Shown here one piece after another: positions 21,991-63,854 of a stretch of 64,000 bases of DNA; the first letter of the stretch is position 1, and every line of letters starts with the position of its first letter. The DNA is taken from IMG/VR virus record IMGVR_UViG_3300045988_112808; one strand, written 5' to 3'. This DNA is from a virus. Both the position numbers and the translations under genes were made by a program. The notes below the pieces were generated by a model that did not search any database, was not told the DNA's origin, and saw nothing but the letters and a program-made list of their open reading frames with translations.

Positions 21991-22479
21991 CTAAGCATTA
22001 ACTTCATGACCTCCCCTATCCGTGAAAACTAAACCAATACCTTCTATGATATGTCCTACTACAGGAGCTTTGTCAAATTCCTCCTTCGTAGCCCAAGTAG
22101 CATTATCAGGCATCAGATCCTTGAATGCGTCCGAAACATCACCTTGACACCAGCAGTTATTTGATGTAACAATGCCTTTCCCTTCGATATTGATATACAT
22201 TTTTCTTCCACCACATCCAAGGCTGTTCCATCCGCTCGGTACGTTTTCCACCATAGGCTTAAGCACCCAGCTTACACCGTCTATCCTAACCCATCCCGGA
22301 TCGTCTTTGTGCTTGTCGTACAAGTTTTGCCAAAAAGAGCATTCGTAGCACCATCCCTTGTCTTCCATGATAGTTCTTATCTCACACCTTTCAAATCCAT
22401 CTGCATCCAACGTGTGCGGAGAATGAGGCTGGTGAGGGGTGCCACATTTTGGACATACGAGTTTTAAATTATCTTTCAT
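21991..22479 (-). CDS. hypothetical Cys/Trp-rich protein (162 aa)
   Basis: ORF-track ORF. N-terminal CPKC zinc-ribbon-like motif. Last gene of the minus-strand block. Confidence 0.7.
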   Translation of the reverse strand: MKDNLKLVCPKCGTPHQPHSPHTLDADGFERCEIRTIMEDKGWCYECSFWQNLYDKHKDDPGWVRIDGVSWVLKPMVENVPSGWNSLGCGGRKMYINIEGKGIVTSNNCWCQGDVSDAFKDLMPDNATWATKEEFDKAPVVGHIIEGIGLVFTDRGGHEVNA

Positions 22480-22683
22480 ATTGCTTTACTTTTACGATTT
22501 TAATAGAATCACCAATATTGTATTCTCCTTGGTATCCAACGAATTTTATAATTCTATTATTTTTAAATATTGAAACTCTTTCGTCTTCACCATAATATAT
22601 CACACGTCCACCATCTAAAGGAAGTAGATCATATATAACCCATCCTTCATTAACCTGATCATCAATAAAATAAAATACCTCAT
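22469..22683 (-). pseudogene. small gene with an apparent 1-nt frame break near its start
   Basis: ATG 22683 opens a 22-codon frame. The -1 frame carries a 66-codon protein-like ORF with no start (..DDQVNEGWVIYDLLPLDGGRVIYYGEDERV..) that ends in an overlap with the ATG of the next gene. The frames meet at two T4 runs. Confidence 0.4.
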
Positions 22684-22690
22684 ATTATTT

Positions 22691-22882
22691 TCAACATAAA
22701 AATTTGTAACCTGGTTTTACTGCCTCTGCTTCTTCTTTTGTATCAAACATTAAGGTAGTGACAGCTCCTATGCCTTCACAAACGTAAGATACTTTTACCC
22801 ACCACCTGAAAATTCCCGATCCGTAATCATCATAATACGGCTCGGAAAGGACCTCTTCTACGTACCCATCTAAGTAATTCAT
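22691..22882 (-). CDS. hypothetical protein (63 aa)
   Basis: ATGA overlap with the upstream stop; AAGGAGG lies 7 nt upstream of the ATG. Confidence 0.6.
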   Translation of the reverse strand: MNYLDGYVEEVLSEPYYDDYGSGIFRWWVKVSYVCEGIGAVTTLMFDTKEEAEAVKPGYKFLC

Positions 22883-23616
22883 GATCGCTCCTCCTTATTT
22901 TCAGATTCTGCCTCTTCGAGTATGCTGATCACCTTATCAACAATATCCGAATCAGACATTTTCTCAATAAAAACATCCATTGCCTTAGTTATGTCATTGG
23001 CTTCTTTTTCTTCAAGAGCAATCTCTCCACCGGTAATAGCATCAGATAATGATGTAGATAAGTGTCTTATCTTATCAATGCTCATAAACGTAAATGGATT
23101 ACCACCCCAGCCTCCACCCATTTCTTTCATAATCTGATATCCACCTGAAATAAGTCTGCCTGATGTCGTGGCCAAGGAGGATACGATTAGGGACAGCACC
23201 GCCACCTCCGTCCGCTCCTCCGACACGCCCTTCGACCACACGGCTGCCCTTATAGCGCCGGCCAGGTCGTCTATGTATGGCATGAGGCAATCTTCCATCG
23301 CTTGTGTTATATCAGCTATAACCTCACTACGCTCTTTATTTATGTAGTAGATAGAAGCATTGTACCTCTTTATCTCTTTGTCCATGTCATTTAAAAGACG
23401 CTTGATATTGTGCTTATACATAGGACTGGTTTTAATTACTTCCTTTAGCTTAAGAATGTAATTATAAGCCTGGTCGTTTACAAACAACGTCATGGTCTCA
23501 ACCGTTGAATGAAGCGTGTTAAGACTGTTAAGAATCTTATCGAAATTGTTTATCAAATAAGCTCTTATGGCTTTTGCTGCGTAGTTAATGTTATTAAAAT
23601 TATTCATTTTATTCAT
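22879..23616 (-). CDS. hypothetical protein (245 aa from the ATG at 23616)
   Basis: The ORF-track start is TTG 23625; the first ATG is at 23616. Contains a GC3-rich island at about 23165-23270. Lies immediately downstream of tnpB. Confidence 0.7.
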   Translation of the reverse strand: MNKMNNFNNINYAAKAIRAYLINNFDKILNSLNTLHSTVETMTLFVNDQAYNYILKLKEVIKTSPMYKHNIKRLLNDMDKEIKRYNASIYYINKERSEVIADITQAMEDCLMPYIDDLAGAIRAAVWSKGVSEERTEVAVLSLIVSSLATTSGRLISGGYQIMKEMGGGWGGNPFTFMSIDKIRHLSTSLSDAITGGEIALEEKEANDITKAMDVFIEKMSDSDIVDKVISILEEAESENKEERS

Positions 23617-23632
23617 TAGATTCAACCTTATA

Positions 23633-24820
23633 TCACAAAATATTTATTCTAACCGGATTAAACACAAATCCACTATCGATTATCTTTCCAATGAAAGAAT
23701 CACCGATTACTTTTCTTGCTATTCCAATTGCTCCATTAATATCTGCATTGATCAGCTTCCCAATAGAACTTTGAAACAATCCGCGTTTCTTCCTTCTACC
23801 TAAGTAGGATTCTTGTTTCTTTAGAGGTTCAAAAGCAAGATGGTCAATCTTTGATGTGTAAGATTCCTCATGAGTAATTACCTCTATCCCTAAAAGATTT
23901 GCTTTGTAAACAATCTTATCAATCAATTTAGAATGAGGAATAGAAACAAAATGTTGGTTATTCCTTTTACCGATATTTATCTCGTTTTTCCATTCTTTGT
24001 TTAATCCAATGATGATTGTTCCTATATTGTTAGATTTACAAAAGTCTACAATGTATCTACTGATTTTATGCAATTTGTCTTCTATCCAACAATTTCTAAA
24101 CAAAGTAATTTTTCTTATTCTATTTGAAGTTCCCTTATTACCAACAAAAGACATCAACTTAGCTTTCTTCTTATTGTACCACTGATTTACTGATTTCATA
24201 ACCCGTCCGTTTATAATGAAAGAATTAACTACATTACTAATACATGAACATAAATTATTCAATCCTAAATCAATCGAAAGAAAATTGTCTTTGTTTAAAC
24301 CAAGATCAGTTTCCTTTCTTTCATAAACTACCTCTACTACATAACATGTAGCTTGAGGGATTATTCTAACTTGTTTTAGTTTGTCTTTCTTTACATTTGT
24401 TTTGATAGGTTTGATTATATCTTTAACAAAATAAATACAATTATCACCCTTTACCCTACAATTGCAGTTGGTGAAAACAACCATGTTTTGTTTCTTACCT
24501 TGTTTGTATGATGGAAGGTGAGGTCTATGATTTCCGTATTTAGAAGGATTCTTTTCAAAATCCTTCTTGAGTTTTATCCAGGATTTTATGTTTTTAAATA
24601 CCTGTTTAATCACCTGTTGGGATACATGATTAGGTAAATTCCTGAAATCGAATTGGTTTTCTTTGCAAAGTTTGTTTGATAAATCAAATTCCTTTAAATA
24701 GTTACCTGAAAAGATTCCTTGACGAATGTTGTAAAGAACATAATTATATAACAAGCCGGATTTGAAGCAAATATCCTCAAACCGGTTGTCTTTAACTATA
24801 TGCCTTTCAACTAATCTCAT
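23633..24820 (-). CDS. tnpB: TnpB-like RNA-guided endonuclease (IS200/IS605 OrfB family), zinc-finger-less subtype
   Basis: 395 aa. RuvC-like triad: D in LSIDLGLNN, E in HEESYTSK, D in INADINGAIGIARK. Cys-free linker SKIDHLAFEP..YLGRRKKRGLFQS between RuvC-II and RuvC-III. N-terminal half is typical of OrfB. Confidence 0.85.
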   Translation of the reverse strand: MRLVERHIVKDNRFEDICFKSGLLYNYVLYNIRQGIFSGNYLKEFDLSNKLCKENQFDFRNLPNHVSQQVIKQVFKNIKSWIKLKKDFEKNPSKYGNHRPHLPSYKQGKKQNMVVFTNCNCRVKGDNCIYFVKDIIKPIKTNVKKDKLKQVRIIPQATCYVVEVVYERKETDLGLNKDNFLSIDLGLNNLCSCISNVVNSFIINGRVMKSVNQWYNKKKAKLMSFVGNKGTSNRIRKITLFRNCWIEDKLHKISRYIVDFCKSNNIGTIIIGLNKEWKNEINIGKRNNQHFVSIPHSKLIDKIVYKANLLGIEVITHEESYTSKIDHLAFEPLKKQESYLGRRKKRGLFQSSIGKLINADINGAIGIARKVIGDSFIGKIIDSGFVFNPVRINIL

Positions 24821-24837
24821 TTGAATGATTTATATCG

Positions 24838-24869
24838 TAAATGTAATCGTTATTTGTAAAATAATCAAA
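24838..24869 (-). promoter_or_regulatory. near-consensus Bacteroidota-type promoter upstream of tnpB (TTTG-N20-TAcaTTTA)
   Basis: The minus strand reads TTTG (24869-24866), then 20 nt, then TACATTTA (24845-24838). ATG at 24820. Confidence 0.4.
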
Positions 24870-24873
24870 TTAT

Positions 24874-25416
24874 TCAATCATCGCATTCAAATTTTAGATT
24901 TTCAAGTTCGTGTATTTGTAACTTAAGAGACTTAATTAAATTCGTTCTCTGTTCCTCTGCATGTTTTAAAGCCTCTTCCTTGCTTTCAAAAGCACAATCC
25001 CCTATCTGATAAGGGGTGTAACGACCAGGAGTGTCGGCTAATAAAAGACCACCACAATCTTCTATTCTGGCTTTTACCTTTCTTATTTTCCCATCTTTTA
25101 GACACATGTCTGTAACCCATACGAATTTACCATATAATTTATCATACTCTTCTAATCTCTCTTCTTGCAATTCATACCATTTCGGCTTAGGAAATCTTAA
25201 TGTGAATTTAACCTCAGTATCTTTTTCTAAGACATTAATATCGTATGCTTCCGGCCACAGCTCTTTTATGCTGTCTTCGTCTTCGGCATACGCTACAAGT
25301 ATGAATGAATCATCGGATTCACCACTACACCAATATGGATATTTTATAGGCCATTTGACTGGACGGTAGTCGTTACCGCAGTCGGATTTTTTAATGTAAA
25401 ATCTTGCTCTAATCAT
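24874..25416 (-). CDS. hypothetical protein (180 aa)
   Basis: ORF-track ORF; 7-nt gap to the upstream gene. Confidence 0.7.
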   Translation of the reverse strand: MIRARFYIKKSDCGNDYRPVKWPIKYPYWCSGESDDSFILVAYAEDEDSIKELWPEAYDINVLEKDTEVKFTLRFPKPKWYELQEERLEEYDKLYGKFVWVTDMCLKDGKIRKVKARIEDCGGLLLADTPGRYTPYQIGDCAFESKEEALKHAEEQRTNLIKSLKLQIHELENLKFECDD

Positions 25417-43894: not shown

Positions 43895-43899
43895 ATTTT

Positions 43900-44040: not shown

Positions 44041-44047
44041 TGATTTT

Positions 44048-44794: not shown

Positions 44795-44812
44795 AATCAG
44801 ATCTTTTTAAAA

Positions 44813-45059: not shown

Positions 45060-45083
45060 GATTTCTAAAATATGATCAATAAT

Positions 45084-45467: not shown

Positions 45468-45469
45468 TG

Positions 45470-46590: not shown

Positions 46591-46602
46591 ATGTAATCCT
46601 TT

Positions 46603-47442: not shown

Positions 47443-47449
47443 AATATAT

Positions 47450-48261: not shown

Positions 48262-48279
48262 ATATCTATGTTTTATAAG

Positions 48280-48942: not shown

Positions 48943-48960
48943 ATTGTTTATGTTTTGCCG

Positions 48961-49215: not shown

Positions 49216-49222
49216 AATTTCT

Positions 49223-49999: not shown

Positions 50000-50059
50000 A
50001 TATGTTCCATTTTCAAAATATCTGGGGACAGATATTCTTGCAACTCCAATTTGCGTACA

Positions 50060-50791
50060 TTAAAGCGCCTCATCAGTTCCTAAAAGATGCTCGTTACCCT
50101 CAAAATGAATACAATAATCCCATAATGTTCCATTGGAACATTCGTACTTATAAGGCAATCCATTATAATCGTCCACAATTTCCCTTGCAAACAAACTGAT
50201 ATTCCATTTTTTATTTCCTTCTTTTCTTACCAGCACTTTATCAAACGGCTTAAACTCATATTTCGGTTTTTCTTCAATCCCGAAGAAGCGTTTCAGATAC
50301 TCTTTAGCTTCAGGTTCTTTGCTTGCCTTTAATGCGTCAACCAACTTTTGTCTTTCGGACTCAGTGGCAAATCTGTATTTTTCTATCTGATTTTCCCAAG
50401 CAGATAAACCATCTTCTATTTTAAGAATACCTTTTTGATTTAAAGAGGCATAAAAAGACGTTAAATATTTCCCATGTGTATTTAAAATAAAGATATAGCT
50501 ACCATCTTTATTACTTAACACCTCTCCATCTTTAAATGTAATATATTCTGGAACTTCAAGAAGGAGGCGATTTTCGCTGCTAAGTGCTTTTCCTGTAGCA
50601 GAAAACCAATCTGCCGATACAGAAATCGAATGAATTACAACCAATAACGGACAATTTGACGAATTGTCTTCATATACGATTTCTGCTCTATTTTGTCCTT
50701 TCTCTGTCACAATCCGACCTGCTATTTCCCCTATGTTTATTTTTTTCGCCATTTCTAAATCAAACGGAATTGTTACTGTTTTCTGTTCCAT
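50060..50791 (-). CDS. hypothetical protein, tandem paralogue A (243 aa)
   Basis: Shares N-terminal (PFDLEMAKKINIGEI) and C-terminal (FKPFDKVLVR...W..SLF......CIHFEGNEHLLGT) blocks with ORF 50796-51536. Confidence 0.75.
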   Translation of the reverse strand: MEQKTVTIPFDLEMAKKINIGEIAGRIVTEKGQNRAEIVYEDNSSNCPLLVVIHSISVSADWFSATGKALSSENRLLLEVPEYITFKDGEVLSNKDGSYIFILNTHGKYLTSFYASLNQKGILKIEDGLSAWENQIEKYRFATESERQKLVDALKASKEPEAKEYLKRFFGIEEKPKYEFKPFDKVLVRKEGNKKWNISLFAREIVDDYNGLPYKYECSNGTLWDYCIHFEGNEHLLGTDEAL

Positions 50792-50795
50792 AATC

Positions 50796-51536
50796 TTATT
50801 TGTTTTTATTAGTTCCTAAAAGATGTTCGTTCCCTTCGTATGGGATACACTGACTAAATCCTACCCCTCCTAAGCATTCGTATTTATTATCTCCTACTGA
50901 TTCTCTGGAAAATAGATGCAATTTCCACCTCTCTTGGTTAGTTCTTCTCACCAGCACTCGTTCAAATGGTTTGAAGTCGCGTTTCGGCATCTCATCTAAT
51001 AGATACTCATATTCACTTAAATATCGTTTTATTATATCTATTTTTCTACTGTCTTCCGCTTTTATAATCTTTTCTGCTAAAAATTTCTTCTCTTCCTCTA
51101 TAGCCTTTCTTACATGCCGTTTTTTATCTTCATCATACACATCAGTCCATAATCCGCTATGATCAAACTCAATATCTCCAGATGTTACCATTCCACATAT
51201 ACTTCCCATTACCCCTTTGGTAATAAGTCCATCATATATAAATTGACATCCTTTAGTGCTTGTTAATACATCTCCTTTCTTAAAATACGCTCCAGCCTCT
51301 ACCCTCAATTCCAGAGTGGCGTCAGCAAAAGTACAACCTTCTGTGTTAGCATATATAGCACTTATCCCATATCCATCTTTTTTTACAAAAAGTAAATTAT
51401 AAGGACTTGTACAGTCTTTCGACTCATATACAAATTCTATTTCAATATCATTAATTAATACCGAACCTTCTATTTCTCCGCTTTTAATTTTTCTCGCCGT
51501 ATTTAAATCAAACGGAACAATAATTGGATTTTCCAT
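50796..51536 (-). CDS. hypothetical protein, tandem paralogue B (246 aa)
   Basis: PFDLNTARKIKSGEI ... FKPFERVLVR...W.LHLF......CIPYEGNEHLLGT; 4-nt gap to paralogue A. Confidence 0.75.
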   Translation of the reverse strand: MENPIIVPFDLNTARKIKSGEIEGSVLINDIEIEFVYESKDCTSPYNLLFVKKDGYGISAIYANTEGCTFADATLELRVEAGAYFKKGDVLTSTKGCQFIYDGLITKGVMGSICGMVTSGDIEFDHSGLWTDVYDEDKKRHVRKAIEEEKKFLAEKIIKAEDSRKIDIIKRYLSEYEYLLDEMPKRDFKPFERVLVRRTNQERWKLHLFSRESVGDNKYECLGGVGFSQCIPYEGNEHLLGTNKNK

Positions 51537-51554
51537 ATCTTTTCGTTTTTAATT

Positions 51555-51588
51555 GTTATAAAACAGGATGGGTTACTTACGCCCATCC
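51555..51588 (-). terminator. rho-independent terminator (minus strand)
   Basis: GGATGGG / CCCATCC 7-bp stem (51566-51572 / 51582-51588) followed on the minus strand by TGTTTTAT. The TAA of the frame-corrected upstream gene lies in its loop. Confidence 0.6.
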
Positions 51589-52630
51589 CAGTTGTTTCGC
51601 AATACTTTCCATCTCGCTATATGCAATCCGGTGGCATCCAGCGGTTAACAAATCGTTTTCGTACCGATTTAGACTCCACTGGTGGCCGGTGACGTCCTCC
51701 ACCAGACCGTGCCGAAACTCGGCGCATTGCCGACACAGCCCGCCACAGTTTTCTGGCTTCTGCTATTCCAATCTTTATCTGTTTACTTGTCTCAATAATA
51801 TTTCCTTTTATACGAATCCAGGCGTTAGGTTTTTCACCAGGAATATAGAAAGGTGTATTCAAGAAATTGATTTCTCCTGACTTCCACTCTTCCAGTTTTT
51901 CATCAAAATCCTTGTAACGGGCTTCTTCTTCCTTTCTTAATCTCTCTAATTTTATTCTTTCTCTTTCTTCCTCACCCTTTCTCCATCTTTCAGATCTTTC
52001 TGAATACTTAATCCATGTACCTTCCCCGCAAACTTCATCAACAATCACATTTACGGTCCCTAACACTTTTAATCCTTGATGATCTAATAAAATTTGAAAG
52101 ATGCGTTTTAATTCATGTACGTGCTTACGCTTGATACTATCTCCGCTCTTGGATAATTCATGATTGGTTCCAAGCCAATCATTAGCACTCTTTTTAAGGA
52201 TACTCTTAGCAGTCCCCATGTTAAAGAACTGAATGTAATCCATCATATTCCCAAAAGCGCCCCAAATATCTGTATAAGATAATTCTGTTTTAGCTCTTTT
52301 GTATTTTTCAATAGACTTCTTAATTGATTCCAGTTTGCTGGCAACAAACCTCATATTACCAGTATCCGATATATTATCCCCTACACTGAAAACCATTGCC
52401 CAAGTTGGTATCGCATTACGAACATAGCATTGATGTTTGCTCGTAGTAGCAGAATAATAATCTTCATTTATCAGGTATGCTTTCTTCCCTTGTTTGTTTT
52501 TTACTATTCTCCCGACTTCAAAGTGATGCCCATAAGAATAAATACTTGTACCTTCAAAGAAGAAATTGCTCCCTGATGCTGATTCTTCTTGTTCATGAGC
52601 CCACAAGTGAGCGACCATTGAATTGTTCAT
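51577..52630 (-). pseudogene. conserved phage protein (AHLWAHE...FFFEG.SIYSYGHHF family) with an apparent 1-nt frame break before its C-terminal domain
   Basis: The ORF-track frame ends in an Arg-rich tail with no recognisable motif (to 51617). The +1 frame, open 51762-51577, encodes CGGLCRQCAEFRHGLVEDVTGHQWSLNRYENDLLTAGCHRIAYSEMESIAKQLGWA. The frames meet at an A4 run (plus-strand T4 51749-51752). Confidence 0.55.
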
Positions 52631-52642
52631 ATAAATATCTTT

Positions 52643-53050
52643 TTAATTGTTTAACTTACCTTTATCATATGACATTCTCTTTTCGTATTTTTCAATACGT
52701 TCGGTTATCATATCGCAGAAGACTTGCCCCTCTTTTTCGGAACCTCTGAAGTAACCAACCATCTTCAGGATATTTCCGTCAAATTCATGGACAAACTTGT
52801 TATAATAATGTTCACCCATTACCCGTCCGTATTTTTCTACGAACAAATCCTTGTCCAGTGATTCATCCTTAAAGCAACGGTTGTAATCCCATCTTACGAT
52901 ACGAAACAATGTTTCAAAATTCAATCTTTCCATATCTTGTATTTTATGGATTTCCTCACATTCTTCATCCGTTAATCCAGTGTAATCATCATTGATTAAC
53001 GGACAAGCCCAACAAGATGGCAACCTGTATCTTATTACTTTTATGCTCAT
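52643..53050 (-). CDS. hypothetical protein (135 aa)
   Basis: ORF-track ORF; its stop overlaps the next start (ATGA). Confidence 0.65.
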   Translation of the reverse strand: MSIKVIRYRLPSCWACPLINDDYTGLTDEECEEIHKIQDMERLNFETLFRIVRWDYNRCFKDESLDKDLFVEKYGRVMGEHYYNKFVHEFDGNILKMVGYFRGSEKEGQVFCDMITERIEKYEKRMSYDKGKLNN

Positions 53051-53439
53051 AGTTTTATTAATCTACAGTTACTATCTTCAAATACCGGAACCTTCCCTTG
53101 TTCTCTAAAATAAGCAGTGGCCACCTTGAAAGCATAAAGCGGATTTACTTTCTGGATTTCTTGTTGTGATTTATAGAAAGATACTGGCTGGCATACATAG
53201 AAATTTTCATTGCCAAGGCAACCGAAAAGCCAATCCATATCGGATCCACCGCAATTAGTACCTCCAAGTACGATTATATCGCACCCGGTCTTTCTTGTTC
53301 CCAAAATAAATGTCTTGTTCTTATTCTCTGGCTGCATAAATATCTCCCTGTCGATTATAAACCAGTCACTCTGGCAGCTCTCTACATCCCGGCGAACGAT
53401 TTCGTCAATTTCATGGGCATATTCTTCTTGTGTTTTCAT
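53047..53439 (-). CDS. hypothetical protein (130 aa from the ATG at 53439)
   Basis: The first 19 codons of the ORF-track model look non-native; MKTQEEYAHEIDEIV starts at 53439. Confidence 0.6.
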   Translation of the reverse strand: MKTQEEYAHEIDEIVRRDVESCQSDWFIIDREIFMQPENKNKTFILGTRKTGCDIIVLGGTNCGGSDMDWLFGCLGNENFYVCQPVSFYKSQQEIQKVNPLYAFKVATAYFREQGKVPVFEDSNCRLIKL

Positions 53440-53548
53440 AAGATATGTTATTAAAAAATGATAACTGAATGTATTTCTTAAAAGAAACTCCAACAAAATG
53501 TTACGATAAATTCTCCCATCCCGTATTCAGCAAGTTGCTTAAATGATT

Positions 53549-53890
53549 CTATCCCATTACAATAATAAAAACATCATCATTATCATCATCGTTGATACTC
53601 AGCGATAGTTTGATTGTCGCTCTTTTATCGTCTCCTGTCTCCTTCCATACAATCTGACATTCTACGTATTCAGGCTCCTTACCTGTTCTTTCTACAAATT
53701 CATGAAATCTTAAATCAATTTCATGTTTGACTTCTTCAACGTTAGATATTATTACCTCATTTTCACAATCCCCGCAAATAGCATGCGCGAAAGATCCATC
53801 AAAATAATCTATTATTTCTCTGGTATTCGGATTTACTATGGCTTCACAAGCAACCTTTGTTCCACCACATCTTGTACATATATATCCCAT
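53549..53890 (-). CDS. zinc-ribbon protein (113 aa)
   Basis: CTRCGG...C and CGDCENE Cys pairs. Confidence 0.6.
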   Translation of the reverse strand: MGYICTRCGGTKVACEAIVNPNTREIIDYFDGSFAHAICGDCENEVIISNVEEVKHEIDLRFHEFVERTGKEPEYVECQIVWKETGDDKRATIKLSLSINDDDNDDVFIIVMG

Positions 53891-53892
53891 AA

Positions 53893-54088
53893 TTATCTTC
53901 TTTTAAAATGTTCAATAATTTCATCTACTGTAACCTTACGCCATGTGATGCAGCCCGCGTCTCCCCTGAACCGGAGCTCTTCGCACTTTACCCCACCTGT
54001 CTCCTGTGGCGTCCGTCACTATCAGCCGTTGACCTGAATCAGTATTATTTGTAATTCTTTGGTGTTCTTTCTGATAATACACCCTCAT
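53893..54088 (-). pseudogene. small gene with an apparent 1-nt frame break at a G4 run inside a GC-rich island
   Basis: ATG 54088 gives MRVYYQKEHQRITNNTDSGQRLIVTDATGDRWG... The +1 frame gives VKCEELRFRGDAGCITWRKVTVDEIIEHFKRR, ending at 53895-53893 just before the next start. The junction is at plus-strand C4 53991-53994. Confidence 0.45.
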
Positions 54089-54103
54089 GATCTCCCCATC
54101 TCC

Positions 54104-54904
54104 TTATTCTTTCAAGTTATGTTTTTTCATTATTTCTTCTATCAATTCGTCTGTTTCCATATAATAATCCCAACAGGAATCAACCTCTTCCCATTCTTCT
54201 CCCTCTTCATCCTCCCTGGATTCATCTTTGTATTTCTTGACAAATTTCACTTTCTTTTCAAGCACATACCCCTTTACATCTCCCCACATCCACATACCTA
54301 TGAATTTCACTTCATCATCAATCAATTTGTCAATTTGGGTTTTCCAATCGGAAGTATTATTACTAACCATTTTTGTGTACCTCTCCTTTGTACAGAAAGC
54401 TATACCTTTAACATAATCCCATTGACTGTATCCTGTTGTGGACCATTCTTTGACAAATATATCTTTGCCTAAGTCTGAAAGAATCTGAATCAATTCTTTA
54501 CATCCTAAGTCTTCTATAAATTCATACGTATAATCATACGTGTAAAGATCTGATGGAGAAATGCTAAAAATTTCTTTATAATACCACATTTTATCATGGT
54601 TATCATATCTCAGTTGATAACCGTCAATCTTGCCTTTCTTAAAATAATTCAGCAAGTCTTTCCATTTAACATATTTACTAATAAGTTTATGTAGTGCATC
54701 TATAAGCGAGTGTCGACTATCTCCGTATTTACCAAATACTTCTCTCCAATCGCACACATCTTGCAGTTGGTATGAATCGCTATATTCCCATAAGAAATAT
54801 GCTGCCATATCCCAACTTTCACAAGGACATATACTGTCAGTATCATAGTATATTTTTATACGATAATTCCCTACTTCTTTTGTTGTAATAAGTCTGTCTT
54901 CCAT
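54104..54904 (-). CDS. hypothetical protein (266 aa)
   Basis: ORF-track ORF; the N-terminal IKIYYDTDSICPCESWD resembles a recurrent phage/plasmid motif of unknown function. Confidence 0.7.
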   Translation of the reverse strand: MEDRLITTKEVGNYRIKIYYDTDSICPCESWDMAAYFLWEYSDSYQLQDVCDWREVFGKYGDSRHSLIDALHKLISKYVKWKDLLNYFKKGKIDGYQLRYDNHDKMWYYKEIFSISPSDLYTYDYTYEFIEDLGCKELIQILSDLGKDIFVKEWSTTGYSQWDYVKGIAFCTKERYTKMVSNNTSDWKTQIDKLIDDEVKFIGMWMWGDVKGYVLEKKVKFVKKYKDESREDEEGEEWEEVDSCWDYYMETDELIEEIMKKHNLKE

Positions 54905-54917
54905 GTTTTTTTATATT

Positions 54918-55370
54918 TTAAATAGTTTTTAACTTCTCATCAATAAATGCATCTATTACATCATAGTATGAACCATTAAAATCATAATTTTCATATTTTT
55001 CCGTAAACTCTTTAGCCCACTCTCGAATGATGTTAAATGCCTGTTCCCTGCTATATTCTTTTGGTCCTGTTAGATACTCCACAGCTTCCACCGATAACTC
55101 TTGCAGATTTCGTAAGTAATTTAAACCAATGCTATATGGTAGCTTACCTACTTCTATACATACATGATGATCTTGTTTAAAGGCGTCCTGCAAGTCTTCA
55201 GGACTCTCTATCAATGACTCAGACTCATCATCTACCCTCACCTTGTATAACTCAAAATCTTCATTTTCTGCCGACACCCATATCTTGTAGGCTTTTTCGT
55301 TGGACAATCTTTTCCAAACAAATCCGTCGCTGAATACAATCAGGCTACCTGTTACTATCGTTCCTTTCAT
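54918..55370 (-). CDS. hypothetical protein (150 aa)
   Basis: ORF-track ORF; ATGA overlap upstream. Confidence 0.65.
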   Translation of the reverse strand: MKGTIVTGSLIVFSDGFVWKRLSNEKAYKIWVSAENEDFELYKVRVDDESESLIESPEDLQDAFKQDHHVCIEVGKLPYSIGLNYLRNLQELSVEAVEYLTGPKEYSREQAFNIIREWAKEFTEKYENYDFNGSYYDVIDAFIDEKLKTI

Positions 55371-55651
55371 TTTTCTTCCTCCTCATTATCCCATCCTAAA
55401 CAAGAATCTAAATGTGAAATAAAAATTGTAGCTCCCTTATTTTCTTCCACAGTAGGATACTCTACCTCATAATAGTCAAATTCAGAGCTCTCTAATCCGA
55501 CCCTATCTTCATCCCATCCATTTTTGGTTCCATCCTCTGCCATTTCTTTAAGCTTTTCCAAAGCCTCTTCTGGTGTTTCTGCTTCAATGGATAATCTATC
55601 TTTCATCCATCCATAAACTCTTCTTTCTACTTCAAATATAAATTCTTTCAT
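55367..55651 (-). CDS. hypothetical acidic protein (94 aa)
   Basis: ORF-track ORF. Confidence 0.6.
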   Translation of the reverse strand: MKEFIFEVERRVYGWMKDRLSIEAETPEEALEKLKEMAEDGTKNGWDEDRVGLESSEFDYYEVEYPTVEENKGATIFISHLDSCLGWDNEEEEK

Positions 55652-55691
55652 TTCGCTATTTTTTTTTGTTTATTATATTTCACATCTTGTA

Positions 55692-56012
55692 TCAAATAAC
55701 CTCCTTGGAAGCATTATTTAATGGTGATTCCTTCAATCTCTTTAGATTAAATCCTATCATATTCCCACACTGTGGACACTTAAAACCATAAGGTTCACTA
55801 ACCATCCTGTCACTTCTGTTGCACATCATACAGTATGGTCGCCATCCGTCATACCATGTCCCTCCCTTGGCTTCCTTCAATCTTCTCAACTTTTCTTTTT
55901 CTGGAAGATCTATATTCTGTTTTAGTGTTTCCATTAATCTGTTGTTTACCGTGATAATATCAATATCTGAGACATCAAAACATAATACGGCTATTTTGAT
56001 TTTCGCTTCCAT
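55692..56012 (-). CDS. zinc-ribbon protein (106 aa)
   Basis: CMMC...CPQCG motif. Confidence 0.6.
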   Translation of the reverse strand: MEAKIKIAVLCFDVSDIDIITVNNRLMETLKQNIDLPEKEKLRRLKEAKGGTWYDGWRPYCMMCNRSDRMVSEPYGFKCPQCGNMIGFNLKRLKESPLNNASKEVI

Positions 56013-56018
56013 GATTGT

Positions 56019-56198
56019 TTATTGTTCTACATCAATAATCCCATACTCTGCTACTTCCAACACATCCTGCACTATTTCCGGATAGTCAGTCGTATCTAAC
56101 GAAGCATCTTGAACGTATGCTTCCGCTAATTTCTTGGCTTCTTCAAACGATTCGGCTTGTATATATAAATCAAGCGTCAATGAAAACGGATATAACAT
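56019..56198 (-). CDS. small acidic protein (59 aa, just below the ORF-track cutoff)
   Basis: ATG 56198 to TAA 56021-56019: MLYPFSLTLDLYIQAESFEEAKKLAEAYVQD... Fills a 188-nt gap. Confidence 0.55.
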   Translation of the reverse strand: MLYPFSLTLDLYIQAESFEEAKKLAEAYVQDASLDTTDYPEIVQDVLEVAEYGIIDVEQ

Positions 56199-56200
56199 AG

Positions 56201-56515
56201 CTAATCTGTTATTCTGTAATAATAATCAAGTTCTTCTCCCTTAAAGTTGTTCATGGCATACTCGTCAGCTTCCCGCCACAACCGGTCATACAATGCAGCC
56301 AGTTCACGATTGCTTTTATAATGTTGCCAGATTTTATGATTCAATACCAGCGTCAATTCTGTAAAGAACTTATAATCGTCTTTCCATTCGCTGAACGCAC
56401 GTTTGTAGGTATCTTTGACACCTGCTATACCATACTTGTCGGCTATGCTGAAATCTTCCCAAAAGGTAGTTATCAGGTCATAGCCATTCTCCTGCATAAA
56501 TTCTCGAAATGTCAT
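56201..56515 (-). CDS. hypothetical protein (104 aa)
   Basis: ORF-track ORF; TTFWEDFSIADKYG...LVLNHKIW pattern recalled from mobile-element genes of unknown function. Confidence 0.65.
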   Translation of the reverse strand: MTFREFMQENGYDLITTFWEDFSIADKYGIAGVKDTYKRAFSEWKDDYKFFTELTLVLNHKIWQHYKSNRELAALYDRLWREADEYAMNNFKGEELDYYYRITD

Positions 56516-56522
56516 ATCCTAA

Positions 56523-57218
56523 CTATTTAAAGGCAATTCCATAATTACTCCAAAACTTTACTTGTTGAGACAAATTCCACGGCATAGTGTTGTATGCTTG
56601 AAAATATTCCCACTCGATTTTATCCTCAAAGCCGGGACAATGATGTTTGACGTAAGCATAAAACTCATCATGCTTCTGTTTTGCAAAATCATCCCCTTCT
56701 TCATCCAGCATGACAATTTTTGGTTTGTTTGCCTCCCGACATTGTTTTGCGGTTTGATAGAATCGCCGAAAGTGTTCGGCATAATACTCGTTTCCGCTAT
56801 AATCAACGAAGGTAACTTTACCTCCATAAATTTTGCAAACCCTTAAAGGTTCCCGTGTTGCTCTCTTTACCGGTCTTGAACCATCCCATAGCCAACCACA
56901 GAACTGTATGCCATCCCAGACAAGATACGGTAAGTATTTTAAAGAAAAAGACTCTATATTCAACACCTCATATTGTACAGGATTAGTTTCTTGTGCTGCA
57001 TCTTCAGCGGTTTTGTATATGGGCATACTTACCTTAAATTTTTCCTCTCCCAATTTGCTGCCAAACCAAAAGATATGTTCGGTATCCACGTTGTTTCCAC
57101 AAATACCGGTATCTTTTATTCTCATGCCGCGATATTCTGCTTCACGAATCACTCCGTTTCTGTGCATAAATACCCTTGTTCCAAAGGGGAACGGGTAAAC
57201 TGATACTTTTCTTTCCAT
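56523..57218 (-). CDS. hypothetical protein (231 aa)
   Basis: ORF-track ORF; the overlapping shorter ORFs on both strands are judged spurious. Confidence 0.7.
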   Translation of the reverse strand: MERKVSVYPFPFGTRVFMHRNGVIREAEYRGMRIKDTGICGNNVDTEHIFWFGSKLGEEKFKVSMPIYKTAEDAAQETNPVQYEVLNIESFSLKYLPYLVWDGIQFCGWLWDGSRPVKRATREPLRVCKIYGGKVTFVDYSGNEYYAEHFRRFYQTAKQCREANKPKIVMLDEEGDDFAKQKHDEFYAYVKHHCPGFEDKIEWEYFQAYNTMPWNLSQQVKFWSNYGIAFK

Positions 57219-57268
57219 ATTGTTTTATTTATAAATTAAAATTCAGCAATATAACTATATACATAATT

Positions 57269-58024
57269 TTATTTTCCCCAGCACCAAAAATTTACAGCGT
57301 ATTTCCCGGTAGTTATAAATATCTTACCTCCTCCTATCTCCGCAAGTATGTTCTTTCCAAATATCCTTGTAAGAAGCGGTATATACTTTGCATCTATAGG
57401 TAAATCCTGGATTTCTTTTATAGGTCTATATGGCACAAACGCTTTGTTCTCATATACCATCTCAATATACAATCCATCCGGTGATTCAAACACGTCTTTC
57501 CCTTTCTGTCTCATCCCAGATCGTATTATCCGTTCTTTCCAAGATTGAATATATGATTTTCTAAGGGTCTCATTTATCTTATTAATGACCTCTTCCTTAA
57601 ATTCGTAATACTCATATATACGACCTTTGTAGTCAGCTATCATTTCTTCAATCTTACTTTCGGATGCCCATAATCCATAATACACATAGCAATCCAATAA
57701 TCTATCTACTGAAGAAACACCAATCAGTACCATTTTAGAAAGTGGATTTCCCTCTTTTTCCAATTCTTCTCTTGCTCTGTCTGTCACCGCATCCCACCAT
57801 TGCCCTTCACACTTCTCTATCTCCCCGTTGTCAAGTACGATATCGAACTTTCTACCTCCGAAAGCTTCTCTTCTCTCATTTCTCTTTGCAAGGAAATCAT
57901 AGAATACACCTCCTATCCTTCCAATAATGGTATCATCTCCGTACTTTGTGCTAATTTTATCAGGCATTTCGTCGAAGACAAGAAACTTCGATTTTCCTGA
58001 TTCTACTAAGTATAATAGCTTCAT
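57269..58024 (-). CDS. hypothetical protein (251 aa)
   Basis: ORF-track ORF. Confidence 0.7.
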   Translation of the reverse strand: MKLLYLVESGKSKFLVFDEMPDKISTKYGDDTIIGRIGGVFYDFLAKRNERREAFGGRKFDIVLDNGEIEKCEGQWWDAVTDRAREELEKEGNPLSKMVLIGVSSVDRLLDCYVYYGLWASESKIEEMIADYKGRIYEYYEFKEEVINKINETLRKSYIQSWKERIIRSGMRQKGKDVFESPDGLYIEMVYENKAFVPYRPIKEIQDLPIDAKYIPLLTRIFGKNILAEIGGGKIFITTGKYAVNFWCWGK

Positions 58025-58035
58025 GATTTATCTCT

Positions 58036-58515
58036 TTAGATGTAAGTTATGCTGCCAACATTAATCTGCATTATATCGTTTTCCAGCGTAATGAAATTAT
58101 TTTGTTTTATGGGTCCAAACATCAATCCATATACACTTACTGTATTAAACAGCCTAACAGTGTGAAAATCTTCATTTAGCTCTACCCTGTTTTTATCCCA
58201 ATATCCCAAATCGTTGATAGTTGCCGGGAATCCTCCTACGTCGTTATGCCTGTAGTAATCGTTTTTATTGAAAACGATTCCCTTTATTAACAGGTTACCG
58301 ATGCTTTTCATGTTGAATCCGGACAACGCGATCTGCTCTGAGATATAACTAATCAAACAGTTATGATACGTGTTTGGCCTATCTCCTCTCTCGTTAATAA
58401 TTTTCTTCCATTTCTTCGTTAATGGAACCCTAATATCCATATATGTACCAAATACGACTATGTTAGGACATTCTCCTTCAAACTTCGTTAAATCTTCTAC
58501 TTTCATAATTAACAA
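58036..58515 (-). CDS. hypothetical protein (159 aa)
   Basis: ORF-track ORF. Confidence 0.65.
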   Translation of the reverse strand: MLIMKVEDLTKFEGECPNIVVFGTYMDIRVPLTKKWKKIINERGDRPNTYHNCLISYISEQIALSGFNMKSIGNLLIKGIVFNKNDYYRHNDVGGFPATINDLGYWDKNRVELNEDFHTVRLFNTVSVYGLMFGPIKQNNFITLENDIMQINVGSITYI

Positions 58516-58608
58516 ACATTTGTATTGTTTTCGTTGTTCACTATCTGATTAATGTATGATCCTGGCCACGAACAGCCAGGCTGACCTCATAGCAGGACGG
58601 GCGCTGCC

Positions 58609-58797
58609 CTACTCTAGCTGTTCTACCCACTCTCTGTACCCTACGTTAAAACCAATAGGATCATACCTTTTGATCATAGTACCATAATTCTCTCTACCGC
58701 AATACCTGTTTTTTCCTCCAATAATCCATCTCTCATCGTCTCTATCTGGAGATATGGAGTTAAGATACTTTTCATAATCCTTTCTACTCTTTCCCAT
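58609..58797 (-). CDS. hypothetical protein (62 aa)
   Basis: ORF-track ORF ending in TAG, immediately followed by a GC-rich twin hairpin. Confidence 0.6.
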   Translation of the reverse strand: MGKSRKDYEKYLNSISPDRDDERWIIGGKNRYCGRENYGTMIKRYDPIGFNVGYREWVEQLE

Positions 58798-59143
58798 CTT
58801 TGTCTTGATTTAAACAATAGTTAATAAAATAAGCAACCTGTTCATTTTCCCCTGTATTATCAAAATCACCTAAAGTCATATCATCATAATCCAGCAGAAC
58901 CATACGAAAACCGTTTTTTTTGACATACACCTCCGTTAAAAACATAGGAATCCCAGCAATTTCTATTATCACCGGAAACTGATCATCAAAGTCAAACGCA
59001 TTATTATCTTCTCCCCATTTTTTAAATTTTAGCTTTATACTTCCACCGTTCTCCACTAATGCCTCTTTGATGTACTTTAATCTTTTTGCATTCAGATCAA
59101 TCTCTGCTTTTTCTATTTCTTTGTACAATTCATTCAGATCCAT
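58784..59143 (-). CDS. hypothetical protein (119 aa)
   Basis: ORF-track ORF; overlapping neighbours. Confidence 0.65.
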   Translation of the reverse strand: MDLNELYKEIEKAEIDLNAKRLKYIKEALVENGGSIKLKFKKWGEDNNAFDFDDQFPVIIEIAGIPMFLTEVYVKKNGFRMVLLDYDDMTLGDFDNTGENEQVAYFINYCLNQDKDGKE

Positions 59144-59645
59144 ATTCCACTATATTTATGTTGTCAAATTTTTCTTTTATAACATCCAAGGCTCCACACT
59201 CGTTTGTTATCATAGCATGCATCCCTGGCTTCATTCTCCACAGATTAAAATACCTTGTCACATTCATAGTGGCATTAAATAATGATATTTCATATCTTGT
59301 GTTTCCATTTTTATCACGCCCTATGTTTTTAATATAACATATGTCTGGCTTGTATTTGAAATAATTAAAAAGCCTATACCATCCCTTCCCGTTACATGTT
59401 TCACGATTCCATATTCCAGCAAGCTTCCTATATCCCCTTACTGGTATTTTCTTTATTTCTTTTGGTACGATCTTGACATACTTTCCTTCTCCGATTGGTA
59501 TGGTCATATTACCTGCCTCTTCAGTACAAAAGTATTCTATTTCAGATGCCATTCCTTTATACACATAGAACCGGTATAAGTTCCCGTCAGGGTCTACCCG
59601 ATCCATGTAATATAATATCACTTTGTCTACTTTTATCTTTTTCAT
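59130..59645 (-). CDS. hypothetical protein (171 aa)
   Basis: ORF-track ORF; ATGA overlap upstream. Confidence 0.65.
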   Translation of the reverse strand: MKKIKVDKVILYYMDRVDPDGNLYRFYVYKGMASEIEYFCTEEAGNMTIPIGEGKYVKIVPKEIKKIPVRGYRKLAGIWNRETCNGKGWYRLFNYFKYKPDICYIKNIGRDKNGNTRYEISLFNATMNVTRYFNLWRMKPGMHAMITNECGALDVIKEKFDNINIVEYGSE

Positions 59646-59893
59646 TCCTTTATTCTACTTATCTTTAAATTGTTATTCCCACAGTATTCCTTCAGCCAAC
59701 TATCCGTTAGATAACGATTAACTCTATCGTATTTCTTTTTCGGACCCTTGCTCCAGAATTTCCATTCGTTTGTGATATTGTACCCATATTTATCAAACCA
59801 ATAGATATAATACACTACGTTACCATATAAATCCACTCTTTTTCTTTCCTGTATGACTACCTCGTAAGGTATCTTCTTGTCTCTTTTCTCCAT
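59642..59893 (-). CDS. hypothetical protein (83 aa)
   Basis: AGGAGG 6 nt upstream of the ATG; first gene after terminator 59915-59949. Confidence 0.6.
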   Translation of the reverse strand: MEKRDKKIPYEVVIQERKRVDLYGNVVYYIYWFDKYGYNITNEWKFWSKGPKKKYDRVNRYLTDSWLKEYCGNNNLKISRIKE

Positions 59894-59914
59894 CTTTGTC
59901 CTCCTTTATTGAAT

Positions 59915-59949
59915 AAAAAAACGGCACCTATCTTCGCAGACCAGTGCCG
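59915..59949 (-). terminator. rho-independent terminator (minus strand)
   Basis: CGGCAC (59949-59944 on the minus strand) / GTGCCG stem with a 16-nt loop, followed by T7 on the minus strand (plus-strand A7 59915-59921). Lies 22 nt after stop 59971. Confidence 0.65.
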
Positions 59950-59970
59950 GCAACTAACTTACATGGAAAA

Positions 59971-60381
59971 CTACTTAACCTCAACTAATTCTACAGAGCC
60001 GTAGAATTTAGTGAAGCTACCAACAAATTCTCTTATATTTTTATATTCTTCTGGTCGTTTTCTGTTACCATCTTTTATATAATTCACCCACAGTCTATCC
60101 TCTATGTTCTTAATCGCATTCTCTATCGTAAATTCGTCGCTGACGCTCATTAAACACGAAGACCCGGTTTTCTTATGTGGTTTATATATCCTTGAAAAAG
60201 ACCACATTTTTATTCTATCATATATATATCCGTTGTTGGGATAAACGAATCCTATCCGGCTGTCACCTTCTTTAGCGTAAAACACACCTGGCTCCTTCCC
60301 GCCCTTTCTATATACTACAAATCCTTTTTCTTTTAGGATATTAACCACTTTATCTAATTTATTTTCTACGTTCATTTTCAT
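59971..60381 (-). CDS. hypothetical protein (136 aa)
   Basis: ORF-track ORF. Confidence 0.65.
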   Translation of the reverse strand: MKMNVENKLDKVVNILKEKGFVVYRKGGKEPGVFYAKEGDSRIGFVYPNNGYIYDRIKMWSFSRIYKPHKKTGSSCLMSVSDEFTIENAIKNIEDRLWVNYIKDGNRKRPEEYKNIREFVGSFTKFYGSVELVEVK

Positions 60382-60832
60382 GCAAAAATTTAAAAACGAC
60401 TCTCATTATAGTTGCGAAGTTCTCTACCTTAATCCACTCATGAGCTACTGCTCTAAGTACAGACGTTTCATATGTTGGAATATTGTCTTCTTCAAGCACC
60501 TTACAAGAAGCCAGAACTCCTTCGGTCGGCTTTAGTCCACGGTCATGCAGCTCGCAGAGACCGTCTGGCCGGCGGAATGCGCACCACCCGTCTTTCTCTG
60601 TCGGCTGGATCATCGCTATTGGTTTTTCCTTCACTGCAAGATACCCTACCATCCACATTGTTTCTTTTAACCTATCAGCGTATCCGGCATCTATGATAGC
60701 CTCTATGTCTTTTGGCGTACCAATACAAGGAACCTTACACATGTTCTTGCATTTATCACATGTACAAGGTTGCTCCCATCTATTATGATCTATGCCTACC
60801 AACTTCTTTATCCGTTCTACTTCCTCTTTCAT
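60359..60832 (-). CDS. Cys-cluster protein, YkgJ-like (zinc/iron-chelating domain) candidate
   Basis: CTCDKCKNMCKVPC and GWCAFRRPDGLCELHDRGLKP resemble the CxxCxxCC ... C.F....g.C.i...RP pattern. Weak assignment. Confidence 0.4.
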   Translation of the reverse strand: MKEEVERIKKLVGIDHNRWEQPCTCDKCKNMCKVPCIGTPKDIEAIIDAGYADRLKETMWMVGYLAVKEKPIAMIQPTEKDGWCAFRRPDGLCELHDRGLKPTEGVLASCKVLEEDNIPTYETSVLRAVAHEWIKVENFATIMRVVFKFLHENERRK

Positions 60833-60833
60833 G

Positions 60834-62841: not shown

Positions 62842-63092
62842 AGCTTTTTGTATTTACGTACATTTTTCTTGCCATAGAATCTACACATGGCACGAATCTG
62901 ACTATAAAATACTTTTGTCCTCCTGGCCTCAAAGTATTTAAACATTTCTTCATTCTTTGTTTCCCACACGTAATCCGTTTGAGAACTCATGTGATTTTTG
63001 TCCTTGCGTGAATAATGGTAATATGATACCACAACACGTTTCGCACCATTCTTTACAGGTACGATATTCACATCTATGTTATTATCTGTCAT
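62838..63092 (-). CDS. hypothetical protein (84 aa)
   Basis: ORF-track ORF; ATGA overlap downstream. Confidence 0.6.
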   Translation of the reverse strand: MTDNNIDVNIVPVKNGAKRVVVSYYHYSRKDKNHMSSQTDYVWETKNEEMFKYFEARRTKVFYSQIRAMCRFYGKKNVRKYKKL

Positions 63093-63123
63093 ATTATTAT
63101 CGTTTTATATATTATACAAATAC

Positions 63124-63157
63124 AAAGAGCGCATACCTTCACAGGCCGGCGCTCTTT
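63124..63157 (-). terminator. hairpin / terminator candidate
   Basis: AAAGAGCGC (63124-63132) / GCGCTCTTT (63149-63157), 9-bp perfect inverted repeat, 55 nt after stop 63212. Only a moderately T-rich tail on the minus strand. Confidence 0.45.
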
Positions 63158-63211
63158 TCAATAAAAATGAAAAAACTAACATTACATAAACATATTGTTT
63201 TCTGCTCTTTA

Positions 63212-63445
63212 TTACAATACTTTTGTCCCACAATTGTTATATCGTCCGTACTCTTTTTTCGTATCATTCAAGATTTCAAACACCATCTTCTTATGATCTT
63301 TGTTTGGTAACTTGTCTTTAACAGCCGATATCACGCTCGCTATAGACGTAAAGCCTGAATCTGTTATTGAACACAACAACAAACCTCTGTCGTCGTCTGT
63401 GCTTATCGCTGACGCCTTTATAATATCATTCCTATATATTCTCAT
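63212..63445 (-). CDS. hypothetical protein (77 aa)
   Basis: ORF-track ORF. Confidence 0.6.
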   Translation of the reverse strand: MRIYRNDIIKASAISTDDDRGLLLCSITDSGFTSIASVISAVKDKLPNKDHKKMVFEILNDTKKEYGRYNNCGTKVL

Positions 63446-63623
63446 AATCTTTCGTTTTATTGTCTACAAACTTATCTATATCGTCTCTTATTCTTTTTAG
63501 CACTCCGGCTATAATTTCCGGCATCTCTCCTTCGGTACGGTTCAGAGTTTCTATCACCCCATCAATCCTACCAATTTGACGCCATAAGAAATTGGCGTCT
63601 TTCGCATTAAATTCCCTCATCAT
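63432..63623 (-). CDS. hypothetical protein (63 aa)
   Basis: ORF-track ORF. Confidence 0.6.
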   Translation of the reverse strand: MMREFNAKDANFLWRQIGRIDGVIETLNRTEGEMPEIIAGVLKRIRDDIDKFVDNKTKDYENI

Positions 63624-63854
63624 GTCTTATTTTACAGTAAACAACTTGCTTTTTTAAGCACCAGTCTTGCGATTCTGAGAGTGAACACCGTTCGGAGTTG
63701 TTAAAAAATATACAATCTTTGCAGAACATAAGAGGATCTTCGTCGTCACCAACTACTTTGACATCATACTCTATACCATACAATTTTAATCTAAATACAT
63801 CTCCTGTTTTTTAGAAGACAAATCCATGTTCGGACCGAATGTTATTACTTCCAT
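63607..63854 (-). pseudogene. small Cys-containing gene with an apparent 1-nt frame break at an A6 run
   Basis: ATG 63854 gives MEVITFGPNMDLSSKK.., stopping after 22 codons. The -1 frame continues TGDVFRLKLYGIEYDVKVVGDDEDPLMFCKDCIFFNNSERCSLSESQDWCLKK... to TAA 63609-63607. The junction is at plus-strand T6 63807-63812. Confidence 0.45.

Follow-up and report, generated by a model that had tools for sequence, protein, structure and literature searches.

Seven short insertions and deletions in small early genes of a crAss-like human-gut phage strain are probably real mutations of dispensable accessory genes

Introduction

The 64,000-nucleotide stretch of DNA analyzed here, referred to throughout as the window, belongs to the IMG/VR virus record IMGVR_UViG_3300045988_112808 and represents a crAss-like human-gut phage. 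Plus-strand genes occupy the window up to about 21.9 kb and are followed by densely packed minus-strand genes that continue to its end; the GC skew changes sign at this strand switch (~21.9 kb). Two giant open reading frames (ORFs) are located on the plus strand, one at 12-6113 (2033 amino acids, aa) and one at 13914-20327 (2137 aa), both of which are intact and open under translation table 11. This work is concerned with seven small genes on the minus strand whose reading frames are broken, in the following named genes 1 to 7.

A sequence-only reading of the window had described six of these breaks as single-nucleotide frame shifts, mostly at short homopolymers, and had put forward sequencing or assembly error as the leading explanation, with real pseudogenization of accessory genes or slippage-regulated expression as fallbacks. 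Public genomes contain many pseudogenes that originate from assembly (Cooley and Wright, 2024; PMC11017572) and it was therefore necessary to ask whether the breaks are artefacts.

Results

The window and its relatives

The only phage record in GenBank with a megablast match to the window is OR575929.1, csAssE-Sib, a 151-kb human-gut phage whose annotation contains structural terms of the crAss type (ring and muzzle proteins). Identity with the window lies between 82 and 98% over most aligned blocks and drops to 76% in one short block, while some segments are replaced. In addition to csAssE-Sib, the comparison included IMG/VR loci (57 around 39-60 kb, 80 around 19-25 kb and 59 around 60-64 kb) as well as further contigs from ENA and Logan, such that each break site was compared with 20-75 relatives. 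The ENA contig ERZ27256444:k119_114665, which is 152,377 bp in length, is 100% identical to the window and is probably its source assembly. A literature search for csAssE-Sib and for the run accessions was without results.

Seven lesions in small minus-strand genes

Three-frame translation bore out the general pattern that had been described for six sites, that is a minus-strand frame starting with ATG ends early and a neighboring frame lacking a start continues. Inspection of the downstream frames revealed no ATG, GTG or TTG near the junctions. Likewise, both giant ORFs proved to be uninterrupted, as had been stated. The assignment of all six breaks to single-nucleotide shifts in homopolymers, however, held for three of them only (genes 3, 5 and 6), while the other three (genes 1, 2 and 4) are multi-base deletions. 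A seventh break, in gene 7, had gone unnoticed and emerged from a tblastn scan with the ORFs of relatives. The lesions fall into two classes, three deletions of 31, 5 and 8 nucleotides (nt) between short direct repeats and four single-base changes in homopolymers. At all seven places the relatives possess uninterrupted ORFs.

Gene 1 (22469-22683, minus strand) is the remnant of a gene for a conserved 81-aa putative lipoprotein, of which 8 of 81 native residues are left. Its break had been ascribed to T4 runs at 22667-22675 but is in fact a frame-shifting 31-nt deletion between two TGATGA repeats with the junction within 22658-22664. The deletion takes out the hydrophobic core of the signal peptide together with the lipobox cysteine; it is on these two features that the prediction as a lipoprotein is based, and the intact protein starts with MRYFILLMTLVLSSC followed by S. 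The deletion occurs in none of 74 IMG/VR relatives, and the intact 81-aa protein is found exactly on 123 contigs. The deletion is, on the other hand, present in a Logan contig from ERR912042 (L294) that is 100% identical to the window. In most relatives gene 1 has its natural stop three codons earlier, and a raw count of 103 nonsense events for this gene, an artefact of that difference, was disregarded.

Gene 2 (44813-45059, minus strand) encodes an acidic protein of 83 aa, 49 of which remain in a called product of 52 aa. The frame junction had been placed at 44901-44906, coordinates that correspond to the resulting stop codon; the lesion itself is a 5-nt deletion (ATGGG) at 44913/44914 with the flanking repeat AT...AT. 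None of 41 relatives has this deletion. Whereas the intact 83-aa protein is present exactly on at least 1000 contigs, the broken 52-aa product is found on 2, and the broken sequence is likewise seen in L208 and L210. In gene 4 (51577-52630, minus strand), which encodes a 353-aa protein of phrog_7247, the A4 run at 51749-51752 had been held responsible. What breaks the frame here is the loss of 8 nt (GCACCGGG) at 51723-51726, flanked by the repeat GC...GC, which results in a 337-aa ORF (51617-52630) with about 303 of 353 native residues followed by an out-of-frame tail. The deletion is absent from all 31 relatives compared, the broken 337-aa product is carried by 6-9 contigs and the repaired 353-aa protein is matched exactly on 46. 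A junction at CGGGC (~51742), derived from csAssE-Sib alone, was ruled out by the alignment of 31 genomes, which places it at 51723-51726.

Three of the runs had been identified correctly and are true lesions, namely, as read on the coding strand, A6 at 49900-49905, G4 at 53991-53994 and A6 at 63807-63812. In gene 3 (49699-49999, minus strand), which specifies a cysteine-rich protein of 99 aa, the insertion of one base (A5 to A6 on the coding strand, 49900-49905) leaves 33 of 99 native residues. It occurs in 0 of 44 relatives; 4 contigs carry the broken 39-aa product and 82 the intact protein of 99 aa. Gene 6 (63607-63854, minus strand) has lost one base of an A7 tract (A6 on the coding strand, 63807-63812) and retains 15 of its 82 native residues; the intact 82-aa protein occurs exactly on 553 contigs. 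Gene 7 (53478-53890, minus strand), the gene with the additional break, has a T5 instead of a T6 run on the coding strand at 53567-53571, by which a protein of 137 aa is cut to 113 aa with about 105 of 137 native residues left. The T5 allele is also present in locus L016, whereas 24 other relative loci have T6, and the truncated 113-aa and the intact 137-aa products are found on 12 and 321 contigs, respectively.

Gene 5 (53893-54088, minus strand; 64 aa) carries an additional base in the G run at 53991-53994, which on the coding strand is G4 instead of G3, and 32 of 64 native residues are left. Loci L027 and L043 have the G4 allele as well, and in 22 further loci the run is G3. Exact copies of the broken product (50 aa) occur on 171 contigs, and further 50-aa variants exist, whereas no exact match to the repaired 64-aa sequence was found on public contigs. 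Among the relatives (loci L012-L057), gene 5 is a mosaic: the same conserved C-terminal part (QRLIVTDATGDRWVKCEELRFRGD...), about 45 aa long, is combined with N-terminal modules of at least four unrelated kinds.

A Pfam scan of the seven proteins yielded no match. With PHROGs, a match was obtained for gene 4 only (phrog_7247, function unknown), and a function could not be assigned to any of the seven.

Further candidate breaks were discarded: at 63241 and 62848 it is relatives, and not the window, that carry the variants, an event at 17989 is an alignment artefact caused by comparison with divergent relatives and one at 42147 concerns an intergenic T run. The latter lies in the gap 42108-42183 upstream of the gene at 41853-42107, in which two homopolymer tracts vary among relatives. 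The T run is T7 in the window and T6 in almost all other genomes, and the A run immediately preceding the start codon varies between A6 and A9 in the relatives. This variation may affect the spacing of promoter or 5'-untranslated region. Another intergenic indel, private to the window, is the T7 run at 54905-54911 between the stop of the gene at 54918-55370 and the start of the gene at 54104-54904, which is 2 bases longer than in all 17-19 relatives covering the site.

Repair of the lesions provides information on their age. Once repaired, genes 1, 2, 3, 6 and 7 are 100% identical to intact ORFs of IMG/VR relatives. Since genes 1, 2, 3, 4, 6 and 7 match intact alleles after repair, they carry only one lesion each and these lesions are rare alleles. 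The six lesions are therefore recent as well as rare. The G4 lesion in gene 5 is older, because its broken product is present on 171 contigs along with variants while the repaired form is not on record; it has spread by descent within one sub-lineage.

Agreement between assemblies

Several contigs from other accessions are 100% identical to the window over the lesions. Logan contigs of ERR912042 match 49846-60630 and 20633-25254 without a single mismatch or gap, and those of ERR3451548 cover 51555-52667 and 48992-49976. A k141 contig of ENA assembly ERZ27307753 is identical over 43617-54050 and scaffold_481 of ERZ28642318 (SAMEA5814758) over 43249-55059. Taken together, the identical contigs span 43249-60630 and 20633-25254, that is six of the seven lesions (genes 1 to 5 and gene 7). 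For gene 6, neither a look-up of its 58-aa C-terminal fragment, which returned no match, nor an exact-pattern scan retrieved the A6 allele from a second assembly. Exact-pattern scans for the junctions in genes 1, 2 and 6 were without a match in IMG/VR and JGI metagenomes; a JGI/IMG contig of 152,341 bp is listed as a carrier of the broken products. When the C-terminal fragment of gene 1 (44 aa) was looked up, a different lesion (loss of one T) was found in ERR11774423 and ERR11156859, which do not represent the window's strain.

If the breaks were artefacts, the true genome would be intact and the consensus would contain miscalled homopolymer lengths or collapsed short repeats. Such an origin could be invoked for the four lesions that affect single bases in homopolymers of 4-7 bases; it would accord with the frequency of assembly-derived pseudogenes in public genomes (PMC11017572), with the missing second assembly for the gene 6 allele and with the many +1 and -1 events that are seen at 5-7-base runs in single genomes of IMG/VR relatives. 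Miscalled homopolymers, however, cannot yield deletions of 31, 8 and 5 nt flanked by microhomology. Furthermore, assemblies of MEGAHIT style (k119 and k141), of Logan and of scaffold style, five accessions in all, agree exactly over six lesions, and the broken products recur on 2-171 contigs. Random errors would also be expected to strike the large ORFs, which contain 55 runs of at least 5 bases within 12.5 kb and in which not a single frameshift was found in about 599 kb of sequence from relatives. The explanation originally favored is thus contradicted by the multi-base deletions, by the identical contigs elsewhere and by the sparing of the large ORFs, and we consider assembly error very unlikely on the basis of these comparisons.

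Distribution of frame breaks among relatives

That no break affects the giant ORFs had been pointed out in the sequence-only reading. Within this one window the observation is weak evidence: seven evenly spread events would place about 2.4 within the 22 kb that plus-strand genes occupy, for which the Poisson probability of observing none is ~0.09 (hand arithmetic). Among the relatives, on the other hand, the contrast is strong. In 57 IMG/VR loci 94 derived frame breaks were counted, equivalent to 0.94 per 10 kb of accessory region and ranging from 0 to 5 per locus, after filtering for polarity (intact genomes at least twice as numerous as broken ones). With 5 breaks in the span of 39-60 kb, the window lies at the top of this range and is equalled by 4 of the 57 relatives. 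The breaks of the relatives are scattered over many accessory genes; most are +1 or -1 changes at 5-7-base runs and some comprise 2, 4, 5, 7, 8 or 16 nt.

The 2137-aa ORF is uninterrupted in 78 of 80 loci (compared over 3.9-30 kb of the window). One of the remaining two is cut by the end of its contig and the other has an in-frame stop. The latter, in IMGVR_UViG_3300045988_102031 (L279, 10001-16423), is the sole interrupted copy among the 80 and consists of parts of 551 and 1588 aa in the same frame. In about 599 kb of large ORFs surveyed across relatives no frameshift was detected, compared with about 56 expected at the accessory rate, a Poisson figure that overstates independence because events shared by descent were counted once per genome. 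The replication genes at 22-30 kb show only about 7 events in 80 loci. The density of runs of 5 or more bases in the accessory region exceeds that in the large ORFs only about 1.5-fold.

A similar picture is obtained for changes private to the window. Substitutions are evenly spread (19 in the late, 8 in the replication and 22 in the accessory part), whereas private indels number 0, 1 and 7, respectively. When indels are set against substitutions for the late versus the accessory third, a hypergeometric P of ~0.02 results (computed by hand). Such a distribution is to be expected when indels originate throughout the genome and are subsequently eliminated from essential genes. From the population contrast we infer that purifying selection on essential genes accounts for the lack of breaks in the giant ORFs and that no special mechanism is required.

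Frameshifting, recoding and the A tract of gene 6

Regulated expression by slippage, proposed as a fallback in the sequence-only reading, would lead one to expect breaks shared with relatives in conserved contexts. Comparison showed the opposite: at the break positions the relatives carry intact ORFs, six of the breaks in the window are absent from nearly all of them, and L016 is the only relative locus to share any of these six, namely that in gene 7. An exception is the G4 break, which is common to 2 of 24 relative loci compared, by descent in one sub-lineage. Since conservation of the breaks is lacking, the comparison does not support programmed shifting. At the G4 site, a +1 shift at UGG-GGU would be needed to restore the frame, and reading of the sequence did not reveal a recognizable slippery P-site codon, a rare codon or a stop.

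The fact that many truncated cluster members end before W, Q or C had prompted the idea of stop-codon recoding (TGA to W, TAG to Q), a phenomenon reported for some crAss-like phages, which was rejected. A tRNA search of the window found none and hence no phage suppressor tRNA, and 100 kb of the csAssE-Sib sequence contain only tRNA-Tyr and tRNA-Lys. In addition, the giant ORFs are open under table 11 and the lesions are indels. The 42-aa form of gene 3 results simply from a change of TGG to TGA, and further short members may be truncated by the ends of their contigs.

The A tract of gene 6 deserves separate consideration. In relatives it is either pure, with A7 in 13, A8 in 8 and A9 in 2 loci, or interrupted (AAAGAAG), as in 23 of 46. 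Lengths from A6 to A9 are encountered in backgrounds whose identity with the window is 99.7% or more, and A8 is seen at 99.8% as well as at 95.6% identity. Judged by this variation, the tract is a probable mutational hot spot, and its use as a switch is putative.

It is well known that RNA polymerase slips on runs of about 8-9 A. One could therefore imagine that the homopolymer sites, above all the A tract of gene 6 and G4 in gene 5, are phase-variable or slippage sites and that some full-length protein is made. Tract lengths of A6, A7, A8 and A9 in near-identical backgrounds, with about 10 of 23 pure-tract relatives out of frame, would be in line with this idea, as would the A8 allele at both 99.8% and 95.6% identity, which suggests recurrent change, and the persistence of the G4 allele on 171 contigs. 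However, the 23 relatives with a G-interrupted tract are stably in frame, so that variability is not a conserved trait, and a set of ten loci used in this comparison is enriched for variants by the way in which it was selected. Runs such as A6 and G4 are too short to slip to an appreciable extent, the UGG-GGU site has none of the features looked for and three of the lesions are not located at runs. Regulated expression is accordingly regarded as quite unlikely.

Recurrent losses

Some of the genes have been broken more than once. Gene 3 is interrupted in three ways, by A6 in the window, by a change from A5 to A4 at ~49976-49980 in 14 loci including csAssE-Sib and by a TGG to TGA substitution in 5 loci; the product of the latter allele, 42 aa in length, is found on 112 contigs. 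For gene 1, other lesions are the loss of one T in ERR11774423 and ERR11156859, a 5-nt deletion in L073 and an early stop in L091. These repeated hits fit tolerated decay combined with mutation bias, and selection for loss is possible.

Selection could have acted if, for example, the proteins triggered host defense or imposed a cost on the current host strain. Independent breakage of the same genes (A6, A4 and TGA in gene 3, four lesions in gene 1, A6, A8 and A9 in gene 6) points in this direction, and so does the combination of six recent lesions with few private substitutions in one clonal strain. The region also contains, by precomputed matches, a Dam methylase and a Gad2-like anti-defense protein. 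Against adaptive loss stands that the breaks of the relatives are spread over many accessory genes and are not centered on these seven, that the burden of the window in the 39-60 kb span is reached by 4 of 57 relatives and that intact alleles are far commoner than broken ones. Moreover, no function is assigned to any of the seven proteins and recurrence at homopolymers is to be expected from mutation bias alone. We therefore consider adaptive loss unlikely.

The Gad2-like protein mentioned above comprises 220 aa and is encoded at 48280-48942 on the minus strand. It has a precomputed Pfam match to Gad2 (PF26128, anti-Gabija), which our own Pfam scan did not reproduce. Its neighbor at 47599-48261 (minus strand) specifies a Dam-type N6-adenine methyltransferase. 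Judging from these matches, the accessory region may hold anti-defense genes.

Replaced segments and the csAssE-Sib record

About 5.8 kb of small early genes in the window (53663-59458) have no nucleotide match in csAssE-Sib, where this module is replaced. Other gaps without a match are 47577-48268 and 38723-39271. A 395-aa TnpB-like protein (Pfam OrfB_IS605 and Cas12f1-like TNB) is encoded at 23633-24820 on the minus strand, within a segment (~23610-24876) that is unmatched at that position in csAssE-Sib and looks like an insertion of the IS605 family in the window's strain. csAssE-Sib has TnpB genes elsewhere in its genome.

The GenBank record of csAssE-Sib (L002) may have frame problems of its own. 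Two overlapping coding sequences (CDS; 1829-2674 and 2574-8231) take the place of the 2137-aa ORF in its annotation, and in the region 22275-24016 a hypothetical CDS overlaps the CDS for a DnaB-like helicase by 139 nt. Its gene 3 (37226-37450), which has the A5 to A4 deletion, is annotated as 74 aa from an internal ATG.

Discussion

Most probably, the seven breaks are genuine mutations by which one clonal strain of a crAss-like gut phage has lost the function of dispensable small early accessory genes. Real pseudogenization, the first fallback of the sequence-only reading, is supported by the relatives, by the identical contigs and by the population contrast between accessory region and large ORFs.

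As to the mechanism, slipped-strand mispairing during replication would explain the gain or loss of one base at homopolymers (A5 to A6, G3 to G4, A7 to A6 and T6 to T5). Slippage between short direct repeats could have produced the deletions of 31 nt (TGATGA...TGATGA), 8 nt (GC...GC) and 5 nt (AT...AT). By reading of the sequence, each gene is cut short as a consequence. Indels would arise everywhere in the genome, be purged from essential genes and be kept in accessory ones. Broken accessory genes appear to be common across the relatives of this phage, which is suggestive of ordinary decay.

Several points weigh against this interpretation. The evidence for the lesions consists of assembled contigs, the accessions with identical contigs are possibly re-assemblies of the same or related material and the A6 allele of gene 6 has a single assembly to its credit. 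Events seen in single genomes of IMG/VR relatives may include contig errors. The break counts in relatives were obtained by a crude tblastn heuristic, with which mosaic junctions may pass as breaks, and events shared by descent entered them once per genome. Finally, dispensability of the small accessory genes is deduced from population patterns.

Our findings do not overturn current understanding and mainly provide caution and calibration. The breaks in this metagenome-assembled phage should be annotated as pseudogenes and not be 'corrected'. The rule of thumb that small frame breaks reside in homopolymers mislocated or mischaracterized half of the six sites originally proposed. For this crAss-like clade a baseline is now available: derived breaks number about one in every 10 kb of the accessory early region, while the large ORFs are practically free of them. 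The contrast between the two marks genes that are dispensable in nature. A more far-reaching idea, which we regard as rather improbable, is that the accessory early region constitutes a rapidly switchable gene set, in which tracts such as A7 of gene 6 and A5 of gene 3 act as on/off switches and repeated knock-outs are selected when host defenses sense the proteins. If true, this would be the phage counterpart of bacterial contingency loci.

The breaks resemble several known phenomena to different degrees. With the spurious pseudogenes described by Cooley and Wright (2024; PMC11017572) they share the occurrence of homopolymer breaks in a metagenome assembly and the fact that close genomes differ in pseudogene counts. 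They differ in that the same sequence is found across assemblers and accessions, three multi-base deletions are present and large ORFs are avoided.

In contingency loci and in transcriptional slippage at A or T runs, parallels are restricted to gene 6, whose 5'-proximal A tract varies from A6 to A9 among near-identical genomes and thereby toggles the frame. This tract is short, however, with 7 bases when in frame, and it is interrupted and stable in about half of the relatives, while the other six lesions do not fit. Programmed ribosomal frameshifting, as in the -1 shift of the G/GT tail-assembly chaperones of phages, also involves two overlapping frames that jointly encode one protein-like sequence. 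Here, there is neither a conserved slippery heptamer nor a stimulatory context, the relatives use a single frame and the breaks are not conserved.

The closest correspondence is with replication-slippage pseudogenes in dispensable ('moron'-type) genes of phages and bacteria. In both cases small indels occur at homopolymers or direct repeats and leave a recognizable out-of-frame remainder, close relatives have intact alleles and structural as well as replication genes are spared. Differences of substance are not apparent; specific to the case described here is the accumulation of seven lesions in one clonal strain against a clade background of about one per 10 kb.

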